From assembly GCA_965112155.1 (NCBI GenBank), contig OZ218105.1: a stretch of 64,000 nucleotides of DNA; one strand, written 5' to 3'. Shown here piece after piece: positions 14,615 through 48,500 of this stretch (positions are counted from its first letter, which is position 1; each line of letters starts with the position of its first letter). This DNA is from Podarcis liolepis (lineage: Eukaryota). A program made the position numbers and the translations under genes. Under the pieces are notes generated by a model. The model did not search any database, was not told the DNA's origin, and saw nothing but the letters and a program-made list of their open reading frames with translations.

Positions 14615-14800
14615 CAGGGGTGCCAACTTAAATAAAATATTGGGGAGGCAGGTAAGCCCTGCCCTATATAATTGATCACAAGATGTGGCTCGCACACACC
14701 ATTTGAATGACAGTGCCTATCAACTTGGGGGGCCCTGACCCCCTCAAATATTTTATGGGGCCCCCGAAGGGACCTCAGCTCCTAGGAGGTGGTTCCTATG
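14615..14800 (+). mobile_element. hAT-type MITE (caggggtgccaac family)
   Basis: Degenerate TIRs; homologous to the fragment at 38138-38275. Confidence 0.6.
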
Positions 14801-32639: not shown

Positions 32640-35400
32640 TCCCGCGAGCCGTGTTTACATTCTGCCGACAGGTCCACGTTGCCGAGCCATTCGGCCTTCT
32701 GATTGGCCGCGGCGCGCGGCGCGGCTCCGCCCAGAGGTGGAGCCCGACGTGGCGAGCTGTCTAAGCGCGCGTGTTGCTAATGCCAGGCCGAGAGCCGCGG
32801 CCGGCGCAGGAGCCGTTCTGGTTGCACGGGCTCCCGGGAACGCAGCTGACACGGCTTTGCAGGGTTAACGAGCTGTTAACCGGTATGTAAAAGACGCGCA
32901 ACAACGGGCTGAGAGGACGTTTGGGGAGGGAGGAGGGCTGGTTGCTTCCATAGCTGTCAACTTTCAGATTTGAAAATAAGGGATCGGCAGCCTCACCTGT
33001 CCTGGGGACAGTCTACGGGATATCTAACAATCCAGGATAGCAGCGGGAAACTGCGCTGGAATAAGGGAATTTCCCGCAAAAAAGGGAAGGTTGACAGCTA
33101 TGGTTACTTCCCCCACCTGCCTTGGCGGGGGGCTTCTCCCCTCCCGCCTCGGCTGTCAAAGCCCCATGGGTGCCAACTCTTTGGGACCCTGGGTGCCCGA
33201 GCACCCACCCAATTCCCCATGAAAGGGCCGGGCACCCACACATTTCGGGGCCAGGGCCTTTCATGCGCACTGCATGGCACCCACGGCTCCGGAGAACCAA
33301 CGATCACGGGGTCAAACTCTTGCAAAAGCCCCGTCGCGTCTCCGAGTCGCGGGCACAGCCGGTTGCCATCTACGACCGGCCTCGGAGGCGAGCGAGCATT
33401 TGGCGGGACTGGCGGGGGAAGCGAGACGTCCTCCAAAGGGGACACTCTTACGCAATGTCCCCCCCGGGGGCGGGGGAGAGAAGACGGACGGGGTGCGGGT
33501 ATGGCTGGGCGATGCGCGGGAGCGTGCACCGGGCGTGCCTAAAAAGCTGCCCTGCTGTCATTGCATATAGTATATTTTTGGTGTGTGTGTGTATATATAT
33601 ATTTAGTAGTGTTTCCCTCTCCGAGGGGAAAAAACCGCAACAGGAACGAGCCGGGGGTTCCTAATGTCTGTCCGCGGCTGGGAATCCGCGAGGTTCGTCC
33701 TTTCTGTAGCGCGCGGGGCGCCGGGCGCGCTCCACCTCGGGGTTCCGGGGCGGTCGGGCGGGAGAACTCGCAGCCCGGGAACTGCAGGCGGCGACGAGAG
33801 GGCTGAGCTGGGACCCAGGCCGGCGCATGCGCAGGCGGCGCCCTATATAAGCGCCTTGGCGCCGGCGCCAGCTGAGAACAGTCCAGGTTTGGGCGGCAGC
33901 GGCGGCTGAGGTGCGGTCTTGGGGGGTCTTCTCTATGGGGCGGGGGGGCGGCAATGCTCGGGAAGGAGCTGGATGGCGGGCGAGGGCAGCGAGGGCTGCT
34001 CGCGCCCTGCTGCTTTCGGCCTATATGGGGAGGGGGGCTGGCTTTTTAAAAATTCCCCCCTCCCTGCGTGTGGTGAATGTCCTGGCGAGGAGGGGGCTGA
34101 GGGTGCCGGGGCGCCGCTTAGGGGGCTGCCCCAGAAAAGCGCTGAGGGGGGGGGGAAGGCAGCGGGCGGCAGGGCTCCAGCGCCGGCTGGAGGAGGAAGC
34201 GGAGCCAGAAGGCGGGATGCCCGCCCTCCCAGCTCGCCGGCCGGGCTTTTTTTGGAGGGAGAATGAGGCGGCGGCGAGGAAAGAGAGGGGATCCCCCACC
34301 CATCCGGCCCGGGGGGGCCTCTCGGGGGCCGAGGTGGGGGGTGGCAAGGCGGGAAAGTGAGGTGTCTCCCCTGCAGCACATTGTGGGGGGGAGTTGCTCC
34401 CGGTTTTTCCTAGGGCGCCTCTGCCTTTTTTGGGGTGGGGGCGATGGGGGTCTCCCTATGGGGGACCCTTTGCACCCCCGCCCCACCCCCGGCAAACCTG
34501 TTCCTCTCGTCGGTGTGGTCTGGGAACTGGCTGGGTCGGCCTGCCCTTGCTGGGCGTGTGAGGCTTTTTTGGAGGGAGAGCGACTCCCTCCTCCGGGGCG
34601 GGGGGCGGGGAGCCCGCCTGGTGGCTTCCCGGGCTGACCCGAGAGCACTTGCCTCCGTCTTTCGCCCCCTGACCCTTCGGGGTGTTTTTGCGGGGGGGGG
34701 GTCTCCACAGAGGAAAAGGTGTGTTTCGGGCGGCGGAAGGGATCTTCCCCCTCCCCTGGAAGGCGGGAGAGGCAGGTTGGGGTGCGGGGTCCATTCTGCA
34801 GAAGCCCCCCGCTTTGGCTCTGGACTCGATTTATTGGGGGACGGCGGGAAGAGAGGGGGGCGCATCTTGCCTGGGGAGGGGGCTGTGTTTGTGGGTCTTT
34901 CCCTCTCTTGCTGTCTTGATGCAAGGAGGGGGGGGAGCAATCGGGGTTTCTACTCCTATCCCGTGCACCCCATCTGTAACATTTCCTCTTTTGCAACCCC
35001 AGTATATAAGGGGTCGTCTACTCAGCATATATAAGTGTAGGCGGGAAATGCTTTTCTTAAAAAGAGAGAGAGAGAGAGTGCTCTTGCCCCCCCCCAAAAA
35101 AACTCCCTCCGGTATCCCTCCCCCACTTTTTTTAAAACACTGTGCTCTTTTCTTCATTATTATTTTTTACGTTTCACCCTCTTAGGGCAAGCGGGAGTTT
35201 CACCCGCATGCTGGATGGAGGGTGGTGGCAGAGTCCAGCCTGCTGTTGCCGCCTCCTGCATTTACCCGCTTTCTGTAAATTGGCGCGGGCCGGAGAGCCG
35301 CGTATAGCTGGCTCGGCAGCTTGGGGGTGGGGTGGGGGGCTCCTGAAGCTGCTGCCCCCCCCCCTTCCCGCTTGGCAGGCAGCGGGGAGAACAAATGGCA
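32640..35400 (+). promoter_or_regulatory. CCNE2: CCNE2 CpG island / promoter with non-coding exon 1 (about 33870-33910)
   Basis: NRF1-like GCGCATGCGCA near 33823, TATATAA 33844-33850, E2F-type TTGGCGCC at 33856, further GCGGGAAA/TTTGGCGG sites; donor GAG|gtgcgg after 33910. Confidence 0.75.
32949..33102. mobile_element. 154-bp hAT-type MITE in the CCNE2 promoter
   Basis: TIRs catagctgtcaac/gttgacagctatg; 8-bp TSD gttgcttc/gttacttc. Confidence 0.8.
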
Positions 35401-36539
35401 GAAAGAGGAGGGGGCAGCTCGAGTCTTTGTGGTTTACTTAGTTCACTCAAAACAAAATGTGTGTCTTTGCAACAAGTCATCATAAGTGATAAGATCCTAG
35501 TGAAAGTACTGTAAAGCTTGGCAATCTCCTTGCATGTAGGATTTTGGTGTGTAAACTATATTCATGTACAGTAATAGCTGTTTATAGACATGCAAGTAGT
35601 CTCGGCTCCTGACAATGCTATGTATGGGGTTTGATTCTGAGCGCATGGGGCATACATATTTGCAAAATATGCAAACCAGCGCTGCTTATGATTGATGGGG
35701 GTACAAAACTTGCAAGTCGGCAAATCTTACCTTGGGACTACATGCTCATAGCAGAGTTCTCTGAGGAAGCAAATGGAATGGTGCCTGGAGCAAGGCATGA
35801 AGTGGAACAAAATGGCTACTGGCATTGATGCTGGGAGGCAGCAGATGGAAGCTGGTTGAACCTGAAATTGACCAGTGAGCACATGGATGATGAGAAAGGG
35901 TGACCTTCAGTTTTGTAAAGAACTCTTGCTTTGAGCTGAGATGGAGGCAATTAACACAGACCACCCTTACTAAGAGGGATTGTGGGGTAATGTACTGCCA
36001 GTTCACTTCTCTTAATTCAGGTGTGCAGGGTTTTTCAGGGACTGGAGGAACATGACTAATGTGGGCAGTTTGCCCAGATTTCCTGTTCCAAGCGCAGGAT
36101 TGTCACGAGGTAACAGGTGCCTGCCTCCCTGTGGAACACTTGTAGGCTCCTGGCTGTACATAAAAATGCCTTGCCCACGATGTTGGGCAGTTGCCATTTG
36201 GATGTTCTTGGTCTCTGCTACTTTCTGGAAATATCTTTGGGGTTTAGGCAGCAGGCATGCACACACTGGGAGCTGGACTTAATTTGAGGGGAAGGGCTGT
36301 AGCTCAGTGGTACAGTATCTGCTTTACACATTCAATCCCCAGCGTTTCCGGGTAGTGCTAGGAGACAGCCCTGCCTGAACACCTGGAGAGCCACTGCCAG
36401 TCAGTGTAGACAGTACTGAGCCAGATGGACCAATGGTCTGACTTGATGTAATTCATGAGCTAAACAGCACTTTGTATGTACTTTGGGTTAACCTATAGTC
36501 TTCTCTCATTTGCAGGCAACTATCTGGAATCCTAATAAG

Positions 36540-36553
36540 ATGTCAAGGCGCAG
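36540..36553 (+). CDS. CCNE2: CCNE2 exon 2 coding part (exon starts 36516)
   Basis: ATG TCA AGG CGC AG|gtaaac. Confidence 0.9.
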
Positions 36554-39500
36554 GTAAACATCACTTTTATAATATGCTAACTGTATACAGTCTGACTGCA
36601 GCCCATAAATATATGCCATCATAAAAATGGTTAGTCTTTAAGGGGCCACAGTGTATGTATAGCAATACTCTCTACTGCTGTCTTGATGGGAAAATGTATT
36701 TACACTTCCACAGTAGTCGTTTACAAGCCAAGCTGCACCAGCCCTGCCAGGATATGTCTCCTCAAGAACTGCAGCTGCCAGAGTCTCTTCAGAACAGAAA
36801 AAGGAAAGCAATGCAGGTAAGTAGGAATTGAAACGGTCTCCTGGAGCCAGATGTGGTTAAGAATATGAGCAGGATTGCCTTGTTCAAGCTGAAACAAGAA
36901 TTCACGGCATTGATATTGGTAAAACCACCTTCCTCTTGGCCTCATCCTCACACCTGAAATGTAGAGATAATGGGTGGAATTCAGCACCACACTATTACAA
37001 ATGTTCCGTCTCTGCAAACATATCAACTTGCCAGATGGGACAGTGGCACACTGTTCTAGGGGTTCTCCCACCCACTCCAGAGCCAATTTCAGGGCAGTGG
37101 CGTAGCGTGGGGGGTGCCAGGGGTGCCGGCCGCACCGGGCGCAACATCTGGGGGGGCGCCCGCCGCCTCCGGAGTCGCCGAAGAGCCTCGGGCGCAGGCT
37201 ATAGCAGAGCCCCATGTCTCGAGAAGGAGGAAACCCCGGCCATGGGCGCTGTCCCCAGGTGGTGCAGCAGGAGCTAGGTGGCGAAGGGGAGCCCGGGGGA
37301 GCGGAGGCGCCGCGGGGACACGGCTCGGGAGCTGCCGCTGAGGAGCCAGAGCATCGTCCCCGGGAGGAGCGGTGGTGGCGGCGGCGGCGGCTGCTACTGC
37401 AAAGCAGGGAGAGAAGGAGGCGGCGGCGGGGGGGAGCCAGGCAGGGAAGTTGCTGCTGGGGATGAAGAGGCGGCGGCGGCGGGAGACGGACTTCTCTCCC
37501 TCTCTGGTGCTGCTGGCGTGATGCGCTCGCCAGCCCACCGGCCCCTCCTGAGCGGGATATGGGTGGGCGGACGGGGTGGGTGGGGGAGAGGCGCCGGGCC
37601 TGCCTCGTGCCCTGACAGGAGCCGCCGCTGCGCCCGCGGGCGCCCTTGACAGGGCGCCCCTCATGCCGCCTCAAGAGGCGTTGGGAGGCAGCGAGACTCC
37701 GCCGGGCCCCGCCCCTCACTCCGCGCTCGGCTTCAGGGCTGTCTTGCGAGGGGGCGGCGGGAAAAGGCTCTGAGGAGAACCTCGCTGGCTGTCCCGCCGC
37801 GTCGCTTTTCCTCACGTCGTTTTTCCATTCCCTTGAGGGGACGGGGAGGTGAAGGGAGCCCGCACGTGGCGAGTCGTCGGTGGAGGTAGAGAAACCACGC
37901 ACATTAGATATTAATAATAATAATAATAATGCTTTGAAATTTAAGACTCCCCCCCCCCAAGGAAAAGGCACTTTCTTGCCCTGCCCGTGGACCAGGAGGT
38001 CGTGGCGGGCGAGGCCTTCAGCAGCGGGGCCCTTATTTGCGCTGCCAGCCTGACCTTCACCCTCTTACATATAGAGAGGAAAGGAGACGCGGAGGTGCAA
38101 AGGCTTACGGGGCAGAAGTAAGCCCCGCTGAGTTCATCAGGGGTGCCAACGTGAATACAGTATGATATTGGGGGGGGGGAGGCAAGTAAACCCCGCCCTG
38201 CATAGTTGATCACATTGGCAATGCCCATCAACTGGGGGGCTGGCCCCCTCAAATGTTTTATTGGGGGGCCTGAAGCAGCGGCGTGGCGTGGGGGTGCGGG
38301 GGGGCTGGGCGCAACGTCTTGGGGGGGGGGGCGCGCTCGCACTCAAGTGCTAAAATCCACGGGTTAGGGGGCGCAAATTACTTGCCTTGCCCCGGGTGCT
38401 GACAACCCACGCTACGCCACTGTTTCAGGGACATACAGTACATGAGGGGAGGGGAGGGAATCCCCATTGTGGAAGCCTTTGAGCAGGCCTTCTGGGGATG
38501 GGATTTGTTAGATGAACCCCACACCATATTTGTAAACAAGGCAGACATCGGCACCTGGCACTCTCAAGTGGTTGCCAAGAGGCTGCTGATGTTGAAGTCT
38601 CGAATTCCTTGGTCTGCTTCTTCCCCCACCCCATCCCAATTTTGGTTTGTGTGGAGCTTCCCCAACATTTTATATTTTCCACAATAACCAAAGCAGCTCA
38701 TTGTTTCTGTGGTTTGCAGTCATCTGCCACAGATCACAGCTCTGTTGCTGCCTGTCCACGCTGCCAAGTCAAGGGAAGGGGTGCTGACACTAAGCAGCAC
38801 TTTGTCAGGGAAGATTTTAAACCTCGTCCTGAATTATCACTGTTTAATAGCTGTGATCAGTGGTTGGGCATATGTCGCCAGTAAATGACTTTCAAAAATG
38901 AATAGTTGTTCACTGACGGCTTTAATGCTCCTATTTTTGAGGGAGGGATTTGAAATTGAGGGAGCCCTTGATGTACCAGGAGAATTTGGCTTCACTTGGT
39001 TGCTGCTTTGCTCTTAATCAAGGTGCATCTGTGTCTGTTTTCCAAAGGACCCCACGAGAACAGAAGAGATCAACATGAGACATCAGTATGAAATTAAGGT
39101 AATAATGACCTGCGTAACCATTGATTTTTAACTTAAGTTGGTTTGCATTCTTCAGTATGTATGAGAATTTAGATTGTTAATGTGTCCATTGTGAGCAGGA
39201 GGTTCTTCACTTTTTGTCAGGGAAAGCAGCTTTTTTCTTTTTAACTAAATACATAAGGGAGAATTAATGAATCCAGCTGCATAGTGTGTGATTTGTATTC
39301 ATTTTGTTGTGTTGGCTGCTGCAGTTTGTGTTCAATGAATATTTCACCACGGAAAAACTTACTTTCAACTTCCAGGAATGTATAGTGTTAATTATATCAC
39401 TTCCCAATATCCCACCTAATGTCTTGCTGCTGCAAGGGTTTGGATAAAATGCTTTAGGGTTTGATTTGCAAGGCCTAGTAAACATTAGCTGGTTGATGGT

Positions 39501-42500
39501 GTACCTTATTTTTCGCCCTATAGGACGCACTTTCCCTCCTCCAAAAATGAAGGGGAAATGTGTGTGCGTCCTATGGGGCGAATGCAGGCTTTCGCTGAAG
39601 CCTGGAGAGCAAGGGGGGTCGGTGCGCACTGACCCCTCTCGCTCTCCAGGCTTCAGGAAGCTATCTGCTAGCCGTGGGAGATGCAGCTCTGTTCTGGGGG
39701 CTGGAGTCGGGGGAAGCTCAGGCTTCCCCAGCCCCGCACCTGGGGGGAAAATAATTTTTTTCCCCTTTATTTCCCCCCCAAAAAACTAGGTGCGTCCTCT
39801 GGGGCGAAAAATACAGTATTCTATGTGACAGTGAAAATGTTTCAAAAGGCTGGGACAAATTCTGCTACTCATAAACTATCTTGCTTGGTGTTGTATGTAT
39901 TTTTCTCATGCTAGCTCTTAATATCTCATTTGTAGAGTTGTTGGCCATCTACAATATCAGGCGGCATCTCCCCTTGTATTATAATAGAAACTCCTCACAA
40001 AGAAGCGACAACCACTGATTTTTCCAGATTCAAAAAATACAGGTTCAGAAACCTCTTCATAAATCCATCACCTTTACCGGAACTTAGGTAAGTTACCTAT
40101 AACCAAAAGCAATTGTGATGCTGCTATACTTTGATATGTCAGCAAAGCGAATGTAGTGCAACCCCCCTGTGTTCTTCACCAATTTGTATTGGTGGGTAGT
40201 CTTTGATTTGGAGCTAGTGACATATAGAAAACACAATGAGGAACACCACTAATAAAACCGTCTTGTTTTAGTCCTTGGTCTGAATGCTTTGCCTATCATC
40301 AAGGGCAATATGTGAGCTGTGAAATTTTGATGGACAAATTATATTCCAAGGTGTCATCTGTGTTTGATGGAAATTTCATATAAATCTGGCATTCTATGAA
40401 AAATGTGTTAAGATCATGTCTGCAAGTATTGTTGCTGTGTAGTCTCTTACACTGCTAACTTTTTGGAACTGCACTGACTAGAATAGTCTTCCTCAGTACA
40501 GTGCCCTCCAACTTAGATGTGCTACCTCCCCGTATACACCACCTCTCCCCATATAAACATACCTGGACTCTGCGATTATCATACGAGGCCCTTCTTTGTG
40601 GGCCCCCCTCCATGAGAGGCCCAGAGGTTGGCAACACAGGAATGGGCCATTTCTGTGGTCACTCCCCATTTGTGGAATTTCCCCCCCTGGGTGGCTCACC
40701 TGGCGCTTTCACTACACATCTTTAGGCACCAGGTGAAAGCATTGATAACCATGCTGTGAATATTTTATTGCCTTTGAAATGGGTTTGGGGGAAGAGGGTT
40801 ATTGATTTGTTTTTGTTCTATTACGTATTTTTTGTTCTCATATTTTTACGTTGTGAAACCACCATGTGATCTTTGGATGAAGGGTGGTATACAAATTTAA
40901 TCCATAATGAGAGGACTCACAGGAACTGTAGTCTGAAGCATCTGAAGGGCATCAAATTGGGGAAGACTGGACTACAAGAAGGTGGCGAGATTGGGAACAA
41001 CACATTCATGCATATAGTAAAGAGAAGCACCTATACCGTATTTTTCCATGTATAAGACGTCCCCTATTTTGGGGGACTCCAAATTAAGAAAATGGGGAGG
41101 ATTACTCAGAGTTGTTTAGCTTTTTTGTGGGGGGAAATTGCCGGAAATCGCTCACCCGCCACTGACAATTGCATGCATTGCTGAAGACACGCAGTCGCCA
41201 AATGGCCACCCTATTGCCGCAGCGGCAGCCAATCACCAACAGCCCTTCTCACAGCTACCAATCACCCACACTATCGCCACTGTGAATCTCCTGCTCACGG
41301 CTGTGACCAATCGCACCCCCCCCCCGCACTACCCATGTATAAGACGAGGGCTAATTTTAAAGCTCATTTTTTAATTAAAAACCCTTGTCTTATAGATGGA
41401 AAAGTATGGTATGTGTTGGTTTTCATGTCCTTTCTCTTTCCCTGCCCTGCTTGAGTGAAACTGACCATTGTTGTGAAACTGCCCAATTGTCAACCTAGTC
41501 CTAATAGTCATTCATTGTTGTCAGTCAGAAAAATCATCTGTTACAGTTTTGCTTAATGACAAAATGACAATAATTTGAAGCAGTTGTTGAAAACTTACTG
41601 TCTTCTGACAAGTCTCTATAGCCACTTAAAAGCTCAGTGAATTGATTACTGAGTAATATCTACCTCTTTTCAGTTTTTTCCCTTGAAGGCATGCAACATT
41701 GACCATCCTTGATTGGATTTACAAACCTCAAAGCAACTCCATTTGATCAGGGGCAGCAGCTGAAGGGAAGAGCAAGCACCTTTTATTATGCTTGTCATTG
41801 GCATAATTAAATCATAGAAATGGTGCAGGGGTGAAGGATTGAAGCCTCATCCCAGGGATGTTACCTCAATCTCTTATCTTGTTGGGAGTAGGAAGTAGCC
41901 ATGCTGTGAGACCTTTCAGTTGAGAGGGGCTAAAATGCTATAAAGAAATGTCCCATCCCTTCAGCTCCCTTTAAAGTCTGAAAAGTCAGATACAGCCATC
42001 TGCATCATATGTAGTCTTCAGGCAAATGGACTTTCCTTATCTGTTCTACCTCAGATATTTTTTTTTAAAAAAACCTGTATTTCATGAAATCCAAACAAGC
42101 TTCGAGTAGAACCCCTTTGGAAAACTAAGGTCATTAGAGTTTGGAGACTAGAAATAATACATTGAATGCACTAAATCCAAGCATTTGGCTTCATGCCATT
42201 GAAGTCCAATTTTTGCTGAGACCACGTATTTTATGTCTTTTTAAAAATAATCTGGAATTTAAAATGTCTGTCTTTGATTTTAGCTGGGGAAATTCTAAAG
42301 ATGTCTGGTTCAACATTCTCAAAAAGGAGAACAAATATTCTCACTGTAAGCATTTCACATCTCTACACTCCAACTTGCAGCCACACATGAGATCAATTCT
42401 ATTGGACTGGCTTCTGGAAGTGAGTATTGAACTTATAAATGTAATGTGTGTATAAAGGACAGTCCTGAGAAGTAGCAAGACTGACCCAGAGTGCTTCATC

Positions 42501-45500
42501 CCCCCCTCTTTTAAGTATTAAGCTTGTTTATATTCTGCTTTTTCAAATTGTGCTGAAAGCACCTCACAAGTTTAGTCAGCATATCAGTATATAGCAGGGG
42601 TCACCAAGGTTTATCTTGCCTGGGCCGGATCGGTCCCACAGAGATCCCTCTGTGGGCCAGATTGGTGTGCATGTGAGTGCCCGAGCCCACGATTTTCGGC
42701 ATCTGCACATGCGCAGATGCCATTTTCAGCGTCTGCGCAGATGCCATTTTCAGTGCCGCAGAAGCAAGTCTCCACACCGTGCTGGTTTAGTGCAGCGCAT
42801 GAGTGGGCAGCTCAGTTCAGGGGCGGCTTGGGGGCAGGTCAAACGACCTCCACAGGCCACTTCTGGCCCATGGGCCTTAGGTTACTGACCCCTAATATAT
42901 AGGCACAACAAAAACATAGGCATAAATATATCCCCTGCTGAATTACAACTTTTTAAAAATGTTTTGTCTCGCTGTTTGTAGTATAGTGACTGTGAATAAA
43001 CAAAGCTTATTCTGTAACAGGTATGTGAAGTATACACGCTCCATAGGGAAACTTTCTACTTGGCACAAGACTTTTTTGACAGATTCATGCTGACTCAAAA
43101 TAATTTAAACAAAACCATGCTTCAGCTCATAGGAATTACAGCCCTGTTCATTGCTTCCAAGCTTGAGGTAAGTAGCTGTCAGTGAAACCATTCTGCCGTT
43201 GACAATATAGCATTTTAAACCCATAATTGTGCTGCATGTCCTTTACAGGCAAAGGCCCATCCCAGTATAGCAGCTGAGGAAGAAATGGGTCTTTTTTCTT
43301 TTGATTAAAGTAGTTTGGCTTATTACTGAGGAAAATGGAAGGTCTGAGTTGCAGAGTTTGCACACTGAAAGAGCAGCTCTTGGAAGTCTGTGTGTGTGCT
43401 CACAAATGATAGCCCTAATTGCCATTAGCAAATAGCTGCCTGTGTTCTTAGCCCTCAGAGTTCTTACTAGGATTCTAATCACGGGGAAATGCATCCCTCA
43501 GTAACTGAAGGCTGGGAGTTTCCTAATACAGTACTTAGCTGAGACTGAACACTTTATTTTGTATCCTTTCTGCTTTACAACTTGCCTTTTCACCAAGAAC
43601 CTCAAGGTGACCTGCATCGTTTCCCCCATTTTATTCTCACAACAACCCTGTTAAGCTGAGAGGTGGTGACTGGTGTAAGCTCCCGCAGTGAACTGAATGG
43701 GGGTTTGAACCCTGGTACTCACAAGGGACGCGGGTGGCGCTGTGGTCTAAACCACTGAGTCTAGGGCTTGCCGATTGGAAGGTCGGCGGTTCGTAGCTCA
43801 GTCCCAGCTCCTGTCAATCTAGCAGTTCGAAAGCACGTCAAAGTGCAAGTAGATAAACAGATACCGCTCCAGCGGGAAGGTAAATGGCGTTTCCGTCCAC
43901 TGATCTGGTTTCGCCAAAAGTGGCTTAGTCATGCTGGCCTCATGACCCGGAAAAACTGTCTGCAGACAAATGTCAGCTCCCTCGGCCAGTAAAGCGAGAT
44001 GAGCGCCGCAACCCCAGAGTCGTTTGCGACTGGACTTAACTGTCAGGGGTCCTTTACCTTTTTACTCCCAATTCTAGTCAGAAACTCCAACCACTACCAT
44101 ACTGGCTTTTGCTAAGACTTGCTAAAAGAAGAGCACCGATATGTATGCCTAGCAGGCCAAACATGTCAACATCATTTGAATGATGCAACATGTTTTCGTT
44201 GTAAACTTCACCATCTTTTAATGCACTCTATGGGCCGGGCCTGTACATCTTAAAATGTTTCAATTAAGCTGGCAACTGATGAGATCTGTAAAGATCTCAA
44301 GCACAGCTTAGGTTGGGGACATGGTAAAGGACTTGGTTCTAATCGTCTGGCTTCAAATTTCACCTCTGACTCCTGCTTTGTGACGGTGGTGCTTTGCAAG
44401 TCAGACCTGGGCAAGTGACAGTGGTTCAGTGAAGCAGCTTTTGGACTGCCCTGTGCAATGGGCCTTAGGATTTCATGGCGTTGCCAGTGGGCTCATGATA
44501 TGAGAGTTTGCACAGTAGTACCACTTCTGTGAAGTTTCTTCTCCATGTGTGGGGATCAGTGCATAACCGTAGTGGCTGAGGATCTATCTCAGCGAGTGCT
44601 TGGCTCTTTGCTTTTTCAAGTACTTGCCCACTCCTACATGGAAACAAGGATTTGCAGCTGAGCCTATAAGTTGGCATGCTAATGGCTGCTCTCCCATGGG
44701 TGGTAACAGGAGCCTAAAAGCATCTGAATCTAATTTGTGAAATTGAAATAGCTGTGGTATGCAGAATAGGGTTGTAGGAGAATGGATCAACAAGTCTGTA
44801 AGCCCTGTTGGATTTGCTGTGGTTTGTTCTAACATTCTGTCTTTTTCTTCTTCCTTTAAGGAGATTTATGCTCCCAAACTACAGGAATTTGCCTATGTTA
44901 CTGATGGTGCTTGTAGTGAAGATGATATTATAAGAATGGAGCTCATTATATTAAAGGTAACAAAATGAAGATGCTGACCATTTTAGCACATATTTAAGAG
45001 TCTGCATCCTAGGAATTACTCTATTGGATGGGTAGCTAACATGGTGCCTTCCAGATGTTTTAAGTGCAGTTCCTATTACTCTGACCATTGGCCATGTTAC
45101 CTGCTCTTGATGGAAATTGAAGTCCAAAACATCTGGGGGGGGGGTTATCATATTTGCTCCTCCTACTCTATTGGCTTCTTAGGCAGAGCAGATCGTATTT
45201 ATTTATTAGCAATGTCTCCAAAATTTGGAATCTGACTCTGATGTGTACCTTGAAAGCTGCTTGGATACACTCTGTGAAAAGAGTGGATCCATTTTAAGCT
45301 TTGTATTTTACAGAAGATATTTCTTGACCACCATCTCAGGGCTGGAAAGAGTTGGAGCTATGTATAAAGCAGCTAAACATCTCATGCCAGTGTATACATC
45401 CTGGAATGCTCTAACAGTACCCTCTGGGATAAGAGAATTGCCTGTGACTTGAGCAACTTTACTTGATTTTACATAAGAACTGGTTTTGCTTGGCATTCTC

Positions 45501-48500
45501 AGAATGGAAGTGCTTAATCGGAGGCTTGTTGCCAGTACCAGGAGAGGGCACTGGGATCTTGTACATATTTTCAGGCAGGAATGGGGTATCTGTGGCCCTC
45601 CAGATGTGTTGATGGGAGTTGGAATCCAGCAACGTCTAGAGGGCAACACAGGCTCTCTATTCCTGATTTAGGGCATTGTGCAAGGGTTAAGTCTTGCAGA
45701 GCAGTAGATGAAAAGACCGAGTGGATTTCTGTATCATAGGATAGCATGAGGGGAGGGCTCACAACTTGAATTCTGCTTCATTCTACACAAAGAATGCTGA
45801 GCATGTTGGGGAGAAGGGAAAAATAAAGAACTGTTCTCCCTGACGCGTCAGTGATACAGTGCAGAAACAGTTCTGCACACTGCTGTGTGAGAACTTGTGC
45901 AGGGTTTTGGGCTGCATGAATAGAAGTTTACTTGCTAAGTTTGTAGATGTAGGCATCATGCCCTAAAGCCTTTGTTATGATATTCACACACATGTAGGCT
46001 CTAAAGTGGGAGCTGTGCCCAGTAACGATCATCTCTTGGCTGAACCTTTATCTCCAAGTGGATGCTCTGAAAGATGTCCCAAAGGTGCTGCTACCTCAGT
46101 ATTCTCAGGAAAAGTTTATTGAAATAGCACAGGTAAGTTCCTATTCCAGCACATCTGGTGCATAAGAGCACCATACAGATATATAGATGCAAGATTTCAG
46201 CTCAGGTAGACAACTTGCAGGGTTCATGTTTGAACACCAGGAAGATGACATTGAGGTACAGGGCAAGAATCAAGTGATGGAAATTTCTTCAGTGCTTGAT
46301 CATACAGCTGTCTCCAGCGTTGGTCTCCCACAGACGACTTGAAAATTGTGAAGGGTCTTGGCAGACCACGTAAATGATTTTTTTGCCTGTTGGAGCAATT
46401 GTGCTAGATGCTGTATTATTTTTAATTGTATTTTAATTCAAGCTTTTCTTATGTATTGCATTGTAATACAGTAAAATGCAGAATAAGAGAACATGCTTGT
46501 TGCATTGGTTATAAAGCCTGTATGATATAACCCCACCCACCCCGCTTCAAAATATATGGAGGTACCCAGTTCACCTGGTCTCTGGATGATTCAAAGCAGT
46601 GCTTGGTTGCAAACAAATTATAAGATGAGAAACCTTTAGTGCAGCACATCGAGCTCTTGGCAAGTGGATACATAAGACAATTGGTTTGGATTCTAAAATG
46701 TGATGAGGAATCTCATGAGCTAGCATCAGTGCAGTGTTGATCTCGAGGACTCAGGACGATTATGTGAGACTGTAGCTTGCAAATGTTTTCCAAATACATT
46801 TGATCTTAATTCAGTTAAAATATTTTTAACATCTGGATTTTATTAAATTAATTTGTCCTTTGGATAGCCCTACTCAGACACAATAGTCTTAAGTGTTATG
46901 AGGAACCTCCATGTATCAGCTCAAGTAACATAAGCTTAGTGAAACTGGTGCTATTCCTAAACTCTAAGCCACCGACAGGCATCATTTGTAATCTTGCACC
47001 CTCATAATCCAAGCAATGGACAAGCAGCCATCCATCACGGATGCTTTAGTTGAGATTCCTGCATTGCAGGGGACTGGATTAGATGACCTTCAGCATCCCT
47101 TCCAACTTTGATTCAGTGAGTTACTTCAGCTTCTAGTGATTAGCTATCTAATACGGAGATTGGTTATAACCAAGTATTTATACTAATAAATGTGGTTTTT
47201 CCCTCCTTGCAGCTTTTAGATCTATGTATTCTAGATGTCAATTCTTTGGATTTCCAGTATAGAATATTGGCGGCGGCTGCACTCTGTCACTATACTTCAG
47301 TACATGTAGTTACAAGAGTCTCAGGTAAGATGGAGCATCTTTTTTGTTGTTACTCATGTTTTCATGTCCTAGCTATTGTAAGATGTCTGAGGCTGCAGTA
47401 AATATGTGGGCATGCAAACTGGCACATTAAATAAATATGTGGGCATGCAAACTGGCACAAACTGGCTGGATACCTTTTTATTTTAGAAATAAAGTACAAG
47501 CAGGGCTCCTCAACAATATTGTATCACTGGTGTGTTACCCAATATTGTGGCTGAGGGGGCTGTTGGCTCAGGATTGAAAGGGGTCGTTCTCACTCTCTGG
47601 AGGGTTAGTTATGGAGCCTGCTCACAAATTGTGTCTGTGTACTTCTCAATAGGCTAATTTTTCCTCTGTTTCCTCCCTTCCACCTCTGCCCTTAGCTCAT
47701 GCTTTCTCATAACTCTGCTGCCCCTTGAGCTTTCTTGCATTTAATCGTGCTACATTAAATTTTGAATTCTAGGGTTACCTCTCACTTTATCCCTGGCACA
47801 TTTAAAAATTGCCTACCCAAACAATGGGATTTTTCCTGTCTTTTACACAACGTCTCTTCATCCTGTTCTGTTCCATTTCTCTCCATGTGCAAACTGTGAT
47901 TACTCCAAGCATGATAAGATTAATGAGAAACAAGAGGGCGTTTTATCTGCAGTTGTCACTAGCTGAGTCTATTAGGAGTTATCCTTGGGCATGCTGGGTA
48001 CTACTTTATCCCTTTGCAATAGGAATAAGAATTGCTACATCCTCTTGCCAGCACACCAGCCACTATCTTGGAAATAATATCTTGCACTTATGCTCATCTA
48101 GCTTCGCTGGGCTGTGGCTGTTTATATCTGAAACAAGGCATTTTAAACTCTGCACAAGGTTCAGAGTTTCAGAAATGCACAGTAGTGGCGGAACCAAGGG
48201 GTTCATGACTGTTGTTTCCTAGTTTTGAGGTTGCCTTGAGTCTGAAACTGATGGCCAATAATGAAACTGAAAGCTATTTCAGCGAGTGCAAGAACGTTAA
48301 GCTGTGAATGAGAGAAGCTAGAAACTGAAAATCTTGCCTCTGCCATGAACTCAGTAGTTGGCCTGGAACAAGCCACTGTTCCAGTAGATTTGTTCTAGCA
48401 TTAATGGCTTAGTAATATACGCAGAGTGCCATATAAATACTTAAAGGCTTTTATTTGTAATCATGTAATTTTATTTACATTCTGTCCAACTGTTTATGTA

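Follow-up and report, generated by a model that had tools for sequence, protein, structure and literature searches.

The element at positions 37095-38422 of the window (the whole 64,000-nucleotide stretch of Podarcis liolepis DNA that was analysed, G000:C8:25606001-25670000) has the tested features of a multicopy Pack-TIR, and combines an outer left end, a stub of GNAL exon 1, a separate piece of the BMPER gene, and a whole inner MITE that is also its right end. The same layout, in which a left end is followed by a stub of earlier cargo, a new locus and a whole inner MITE, was found in five more families, and this shared layout is likely to represent a repeated route by which such elements gain and spread gene promoters. 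The parts of the window copy, and one related feature outside it, are as follows.

37087..37094, no strand: left TSD copy (TTTCAGGG), 8 bp, identical to 38423-38430
37095..37163, plus strand: outer left end of a hAT-type MITE family, with a 16-bp TIR and an intact subterminal region
37162..37221, minus strand: GNAL stub, 60 bp, with a 2-nt overlap (GC) with the left end
37222..38137, minus strand: BMPER exon 1, 5′ UTR and CpG-island promoter; donor at G000:C13:53.306-53.308 Mb
38138..38275, plus strand: first 138 bp of an unrelated MITE, a component of the BMPER-derived cargo
38276..38422, plus strand: whole inner MITE, 147 bp; its left end is 9 bp short in the subterminal region and is followed by a 12-bp filler and a right end
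38423..38430, no strand: right TSD copy, 8 bp, matching the left copy
14615..14800, plus strand: separate and more distant example of the unrelated MITE type, outside the element

The element is 1328 bp long, has perfect 16-bp TIRs and is bounded on both sides by the 8-bp TSD. Short TIRs that start with CAG are hAT-like, and the TIRs of this element start with CAG; its TSD and TIRs, from which the hAT label is taken, point to a non-autonomous hAT-type Pack transposon. Among the features that define a Pack-TIR, sequence of a TIR element lies on both sides of the cargo, a TSD is present, and the genome holds 5 full-length copies with 5 different TSDs, all of which (5/5) keep the inner left end. 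The host cargo has parental copies, GNAL on C8 and BMPER on C13; as to whether a parental copy is unlinked to a TIR element, a family MITE lies 60 bp beyond the captured BMPER stretch in this genome. A search of the same genome with 37160-38137 returned the 5 full-length copies, 13 that are without the left 280 bp, 1 donor-like locus on C13, and many further matches confined to the first 62 bp. In all, 139 distinct TSD-bounded family members with an 8-bp TSD were collected. The variant of the outer left end at 37095..37163 is common to the window element and to another family, family X, and is carried by 4 of the 5 BMPER composites (L001-L005); it is absent from L005, the most diverged of them, and from all sampled GNAL-carrying copies, so an end swap between families is possible.

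The insertion lies in an intron of a plus-strand cyclin gene (window 33846-47400, with Pfam Cyclin_N at 42138-44965 and Cyclin_C at 47144-47398), which we take to be cyclin E2 and whose exon-like stretches were read by eye at 36517-36553, 36715-36817 and near 39050-39100. The BMPER promoter in the window copy is antisense to this gene. Rfam gave no match within 36000-40000. A stop-free frame of 447 codons on the minus strand, 36721-38064, passes through the GNAL ATG and extends 374 bp into the flank, and is probably due to chance.

A preliminary description of this DNA had placed a second, degenerate left end at 38276, and the alignment bears this out: 38276-38345 aligns locally to the outer left end with a score of 40, which none of 2000 shuffles equalled (maximum 38), and the best score elsewhere in the window is 28. 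That description was also correct in stating that the inner MITE abuts a truncated, unrelated MITE (38138-38275) of a type seen again at 14615-14800. Its claim that 38276-38422 is a complete MITE of ~147 bp holds in that the unit runs from a left end to a right end, but no TSD bounds the unit itself, and 9 bp are missing from the subterminal region of its left end. Similarly, the reported order of left end, ~1.1 kb of cargo and whole MITE is the one found, but the cargo is not a single piece, since a hidden junction at 37221/37222 separates two unlinked stretches.

The first of these stretches comes from GNAL. The stub (37162..37221) contains 6 nt of 5′ UTR and 18 long-isoform codons, with the ATG at 37215; over its 60 bp it is 98% identical to GNAL, and nothing else of the element is common to the GNAL locus. 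The true GNAL exon (L037) lies at C8:49.756 Mb, 38 kb before exons of the G-alpha family, and is 94% identical to the Zootoca G(olf) alpha isoform X1. It had been proposed that the cargo was one contiguous 1.1-kb copy of the GNAL promoter, reaching up to a MITE upstream of GNAL. The near identity of the 60 bp beside the left end is what this reading explains, and we regard it as almost certainly wrong: neither type of MITE has a copy in the ~10 kb upstream of the GNAL long-isoform ATG, the other 916 bp of cargo has no match there, and BMPER on C13 does match. The cargo is therefore a mosaic of GNAL (37162-37221) and BMPER (37222-38275), not a copy of GNAL only. Both outcomes that the preliminary description had named as refuting it, the absence of such a MITE upstream of GNAL and a cargo drawn from unlinked loci, were thus observed.

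The source of the 60-bp stub is a family of 420-543-bp elements that have the same ends and carry ~370 bp of GNAL exon 1. The 30 loci sampled for the stub comprise 25 members of this GNAL-carrying family, 4 BMPER composites and the GNAL gene itself; both ends and a TSD were seen in 23 of the 25 at first and in the remaining 2 on a later check. A first look gave 625 candidates for this family, a figure that is no copy number. When judged against a solo MITE of the subfamily that carries the 12-bp filler, the join between left end and GNAL has a 2-nt overlap (GC, 37162-37163). Among the GNAL-carrying copies, those in L025-L050 contain ~40 bp from another source ahead of the right end, and their right subterminal block occurs in variable tandem duplications. 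Two of them, L048 and L049, have one TSD in common and lie 23 kb apart, and are likely a segmental duplicate. As a candidate role, GNAL-derived copies could supply antisense or small RNAs against the parent gene.

The second stretch is a 1.05-kb piece of BMPER exon 1 and promoter, from a contig other than that of the window. The C13 locus matches 37222-38275, but not the first 60 bp of the cargo, and its exon encodes a 46-aa peptide that is 100% identical to Podarcis BMPER and 91% identical to Lacerta BMPER. In the element, BMPER exon 1 has its ATG at 37354 and ends ~5 nt before the splice donor; the BMPER frame of the window copy meets a stop at codon 27. Divergence of the cargo is 1.8-4.8% among copies and 4.9-6.4% relative to the donor, from which all 5 full-length copies differ by 34 fixed substitutions. 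The stretch at 38138-38275 is 90% identical to the unrelated MITE at the donor and at most 81% identical to other copies over most of its length. The possibility that the template switched to a copy of the unrelated MITE elsewhere, with a 147-bp MITE nested in it, was set aside, the sole non-composite close match being the BMPER copy.

The two joins that bound the BMPER piece differ in character. The GNAL/BMPER join has an overlap of 0-1 nt, and the overlaps of 2 nt and 0-1 nt at the two stub joins are at chance level. The join between BMPER cargo and inner MITE falls exactly at the first TIR base, directly after gcctgaag, and has no microhomology unless a 5-nt slip on TGAAG is accepted. Overlaps of 0-2 nt give template switching no edge over deletion. 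An old insertion made by transposase would be expected to leave an inner join at the exact first base; we infer that the exact inner junction marks such an insertion, and that the loose left junction is a repair join.

The state of the donor locus bears on this reading. Past the junction, the BMPER donor continues into the rest of the unrelated MITE, which is complete there, and no MITE was found exactly at the gcctgaag junction in this genome. The 147-bp MITE that had been predicted to lie nested at gcctgaag is thus missing from the donor here, and also from 5 of the 8 related runs, in which contigs (of X1, X2, X9, X15 and X17) cross the site uninterrupted. A family MITE of 169 bp does lie 60 bp beyond the junction, in the same orientation and with a perfect TSD. 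This TSD ends in TGAAG, as does gcctgaag; the chance that two random TSDs agree on those five places is ~0.002, from a set of TSDs that counts both orientations. The 169-bp MITE belongs to a plain subfamily, and the inner unit carries a 12-bp filler instead. Its site is empty in 6 of the 8 related runs (X2, X9, X15, X17, X3 and X8, the X15 contig having a shorter side of 30 letters), with X1 and X6 giving no information and with rows for joints and loose ends, mostly repeat-derived, left out of the count. One 119-bp contig of X9 runs 21 letters into the MITE, a weak hint of a filled allele shared with relatives. Given the empty sites, the 169-bp MITE may be younger than the capture, and its position near BMPER may be cause or coincidence.

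The inner unit itself was sought as a free MITE, and this candidate was rejected, since no solo was found. None of the best 40 matches to the 147-bp unit (30 taken first, 7 of family X, and 3 coinciding with the X copies L132, L141 and L142) is a solo with its own TSD, the best matches all being right ends of BMPER-type elements or of family X; likewise, there are no solo deletion-type units (0/14) in the sample of filler matches. This sample, a position-ordered 30 of 164 exact matches to the filler pattern, contains 12 X, 5 W, 4 Y and 2 BMPER-type elements, 1 truncated copy and 6 solos of 144-156 bp, which represent the solo parents of the filler subfamily. The subterminal CCGGCCGCAC motif is kept in 10/10 solos and in 137/139 TSD-bounded outer left ends, and is missing from 50/50 X and 6/6 BMPER-type inner units (counted by distinct flanks), with the caution that the members of one family descend from a single event and are not independent trials. 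The 9-bp deletion lies between short repeats and arose again once in an outer end (L164), and the X and BMPER types may share it or have acquired it in parallel. The inner left ends of families Y, Z and W are full length, with substitutions.

One proposal that unites these data is that the element was made by gap repair in which synthesis passed through a family MITE at the BMPER donor, and we give it about an even chance of being correct. Its first step, the uptake of ~370 bp of GNAL exon 1 by an earlier family that was then amplified, is shown by the present copies. A GNAL-type element might later have been broken or excised. Its right arm could then have used end homology to pair with a family MITE close to the BMPER promoter, and synthesis could have run through that MITE and ~1 kb of its flank; the product would have been joined, with 0-1 nt of overlap, to a left arm keeping only the left end and the GNAL stub. 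The MITE used may have been a filler-type insertion at gcctgaag that has since been lost, or it may have been the present MITE 60 bp out, with a slip between the two TGAAG words. Loss of 9 bp from the inner left end, which correlates with use of the outer left end, may also be its cause. The composite then moved to at least 5 sites, each with its own TSD, and its right 1.05 kb was later captured by a second TIR family, both of which the copies in the genome show. If the same cycle were repeated, with each new locus placed to the right of the last stub, families X, Y, Z, W and V would be accounted for.

These other families extend the pattern well beyond the window element. Family X is ~845 bp long and has different, CpG-rich cargo; 24 of 30 copies have a perfect TSD, and all 40 scored matches are full length. 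Family Y has ~35 matches, family Z has 38 full-length copies among 40 scored, and family W (1582 bp) makes up 5/30 of the filler sample. Family V is represented by one copy, L263, in which X and Z stubs are stacked: its left end leads into 22 bp from X cargo and then ~40 bp from Z cargo, after which come a new locus and a plain inner MITE. The join to the inner left end falls on its first base in every family seen, and at both the BMPER and the Y donor the sequence past this join is unlike that end. The inner MITE subfamily differs from family to family. The outer end belongs to another subfamily than the inner one in BMPER composites and in X, Z, W and V; in family Y the two left ends are one variant. 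At six loci (L072, L165, L166, L233, L241 and L246), internal deletion has reduced family X copies to 350-380 bp; these retain the inner left end, and most have TSDs of their own.

Where cargo donors were found, they are intact and on different contigs. The donor of the second half of Y is L211 (C1:1.72 Mb, 83% identity), which has no MITE at the junction or within 3.5 kb; at L211 ~1700-1985 (G000:C1:1.7227 Mb, minus strand), a first coding exon adjoins the intron stretch that Y captured. The family X donor is not among the 30 loci examined of the best 40 matches; of two pattern searches for it, one returned Y, Z, a nested form and four unrelated matches, and the other a single chance match. 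The family Z donor is absent from the 26 loci examined of the best 40 matches, and a pattern search for it gave only family V and two chance matches. The donor TSDs predicted are CCCAGCCC for family X, CTGTGCTA for family Z and CGTTGGAA for family Y.

Several results stand against the gap repair proposal. At neither of the two donors, BMPER and Y, was a MITE found at the exact junction, and the X and Z donors are not among the loci examined. The 169-bp MITE near BMPER is of the plain subfamily, and its site is empty in 6 of the 8 runs. In addition, it predicts mirror products with a whole MITE at the left, and no inner right end was present in 133 TSD-bounded elements of more than 300 bp, a sample biased by its left-stub and inner-left queries.

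Alternatively, two neighbouring insertions could have fused. A GNAL-carrying element would have entered where BMPER exon 1 ends, and a filler-type MITE, oriented alike, ~1 kb upstream of it; once aberrant excision or deletion had taken away the right part of the first element, the two would have moved together by their outer ends, and both insertions would later have been lost from the donor. We consider this rather unlikely, though it is the main competitor. Such fusion has been watched in real time for Pack-CACTA (PMC6379663) and is inferred for plant Pack-hAT and Pack-Mariner from fused AB and BB forms with deleted or mutated internal TIRs (PMC8903248). The model agrees with an inner junction that is exact, with an inner left end that is crippled (without the 9 bp in 56/56 X and BMPER-type units) and with the absence of the first element's right end; it fits family Y best, in which inner and outer left ends are one variant, as local hopping would give. 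However, it requires two insertions within ~1 kb at each of six donors, and two direct-orientation flanking insertions are absent at both donors found, those of BMPER and Y. The difference between outer and inner subfamilies, seen in all six families except Y, is also unlike local hops, and right ends of the family are rare outside the targeted elements (5 in ~850 kb of partly redundant loci). Gap repair is favoured over this model because it requires one insertion per donor and accounts for the mixed subfamilies and the stacked stubs.

The loss of a donor allele that gap repair may require is illustrated by the second TIR family, which has 8-bp TSDs and took the right 1.05 kb of the BMPER composite plus flank to 13 loci; five copies compared are ~98% alike. 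None of the 18 non-donor loci with BMPER cargo contains the source insertion that this young second-order family copied, and lost donor alleles are therefore normal here. The second-order Pack (L053, L054, L055, L056 and L060; L006-L018) is ~2165 bp long, has different TIRs and TSDs that are often like nTCTAGAn, and combines the right-hand section of the BMPER composite with a LINE-like piece, presumably CR1, and another promoter-like stretch, with later insertions in some copies. In L153 (1371-2666) and L156 (1371-2680), the second TIR family surrounds a first-family left end, 70 bp from its start, together with a family X stub and a further promoter-like locus, and without a first-family right end. 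A reading of these two loci as proof that templates were switched in trans was set aside, since nesting plus deletion yields them too.

Nesting offers another account of the window element, in which a longer BMPER Pack, made by gap filling, received a solo MITE at gcctgaag, after which the outer left end and the new right end moved and the rest was dropped. The exact junction and the absence of a MITE at any donor would both follow, with no lost donor allele required, and the left ends nested 70 bp inside another MITE in L153 and L156 provide a precedent. Yet no longer parent was seen, as 18 of 18 non-donor loci with 38138-38275 (at 95% identity or more) have the same junction type, and the examined Y and Z copies likewise end in an inner MITE. 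This account also leaves unexplained the MITE and the TGAAG word 60 bp away at BMPER, and we judge it improbable.

None of gap repair, neighbour fusion and nested insertion is proven. The two routes named in the preliminary description, gap repair with template switching and a composite transposon, are the two leading models, and the core of its interpretation survives, namely that the right end came from a whole MITE already present, to which a second left end was added, though not with GNAL as the donor. It does so because of the exact first-base join, the filler solos (6/30), the same-orientation MITE 60 bp from the BMPER junction and the five additional families.

Taken further, the favoured gap repair reading leads to a broader proposal, in which this hAT MITE family acts in lacertids as a plant-style gene-capturing machine that copies CpG-island promoters and first exons by repair, through a resident copy of itself. 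Stubs of earlier captures would be stacked behind the left end, a crippled inner left end would lock the long form, and hundreds of portable promoters would have been spread, some at polymorphic sites. This proposal is quite possible, if somewhat short of an even chance, and would make the inner MITE a fossil record of each capture step. Copies of these elements scatter whole CpG-island promoters, and how TIR transposons take up host DNA is still argued among gap filling, FoSTeST and neighbour fusion. With no fewer than six independent captures that share one layout, copies that can be dated, donors that can be found, and insertions present in some relatives and absent from others, this genome makes it possible to test the rival capture models in a vertebrate.

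Known systems offer comparisons in both animals and plants. A survey of animals reported 370 Pack-TIRs in 100 genomes, of which four were multicopy, and proposed FoSTeST (Tan et al. 2021, PMC8277862); its main text mentions neither ‘lizard’ nor ‘anole’. A literature search gave no lacertid or squamate description of these families, which may already have names in Repbase or Dfam, outside the scope of that search. Like Pack-hAT-N8_XT of Xenopus tropicalis (PMC8277862), the window element has non-autonomous hAT-type ends, host DNA with an intact parental copy, a distinct TSD for each copy, GC-rich 5′ gene regions and little or no microhomology. The multicopy animal cases given as examples have 3-5 copies (PMC8277862), whereas several families here have tens or more, and unlike the animal Pack-TIRs of that survey, these elements have serial cargo from several loci and a whole inner MITE as right end. 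Capture of flanking DNA by repair synthesis or from a farther end is similar to the gap filling and end bypass of P elements, as outlined in the introduction of PMC8277862; for P elements, capture was shown under induced transposase in flies, whereas here it is deduced from natural copies only.

There are also parallels with plants, in which the neighbour model, multi-locus cargo and fused AB and BB elements have been described (Catoni et al., PMC6379663; PMC8903248) and the neighbour model reviewed (PMC13317346). Like plant Pack-TYPE elements (PMC6379663, PMC8903248), the lizard elements have multi-locus cargo, deleted or mutated internal termini, and a smaller whole element retained inside. 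They differ in having a vertebrate host; every family seen keeps its whole inner unit on the right, the left partner has been reduced to a stub, and the outer end is mostly not of the same subfamily as the inner one. A multicopy Pack-hAT system of this sort is known in kind from plants and rare in print for animals.
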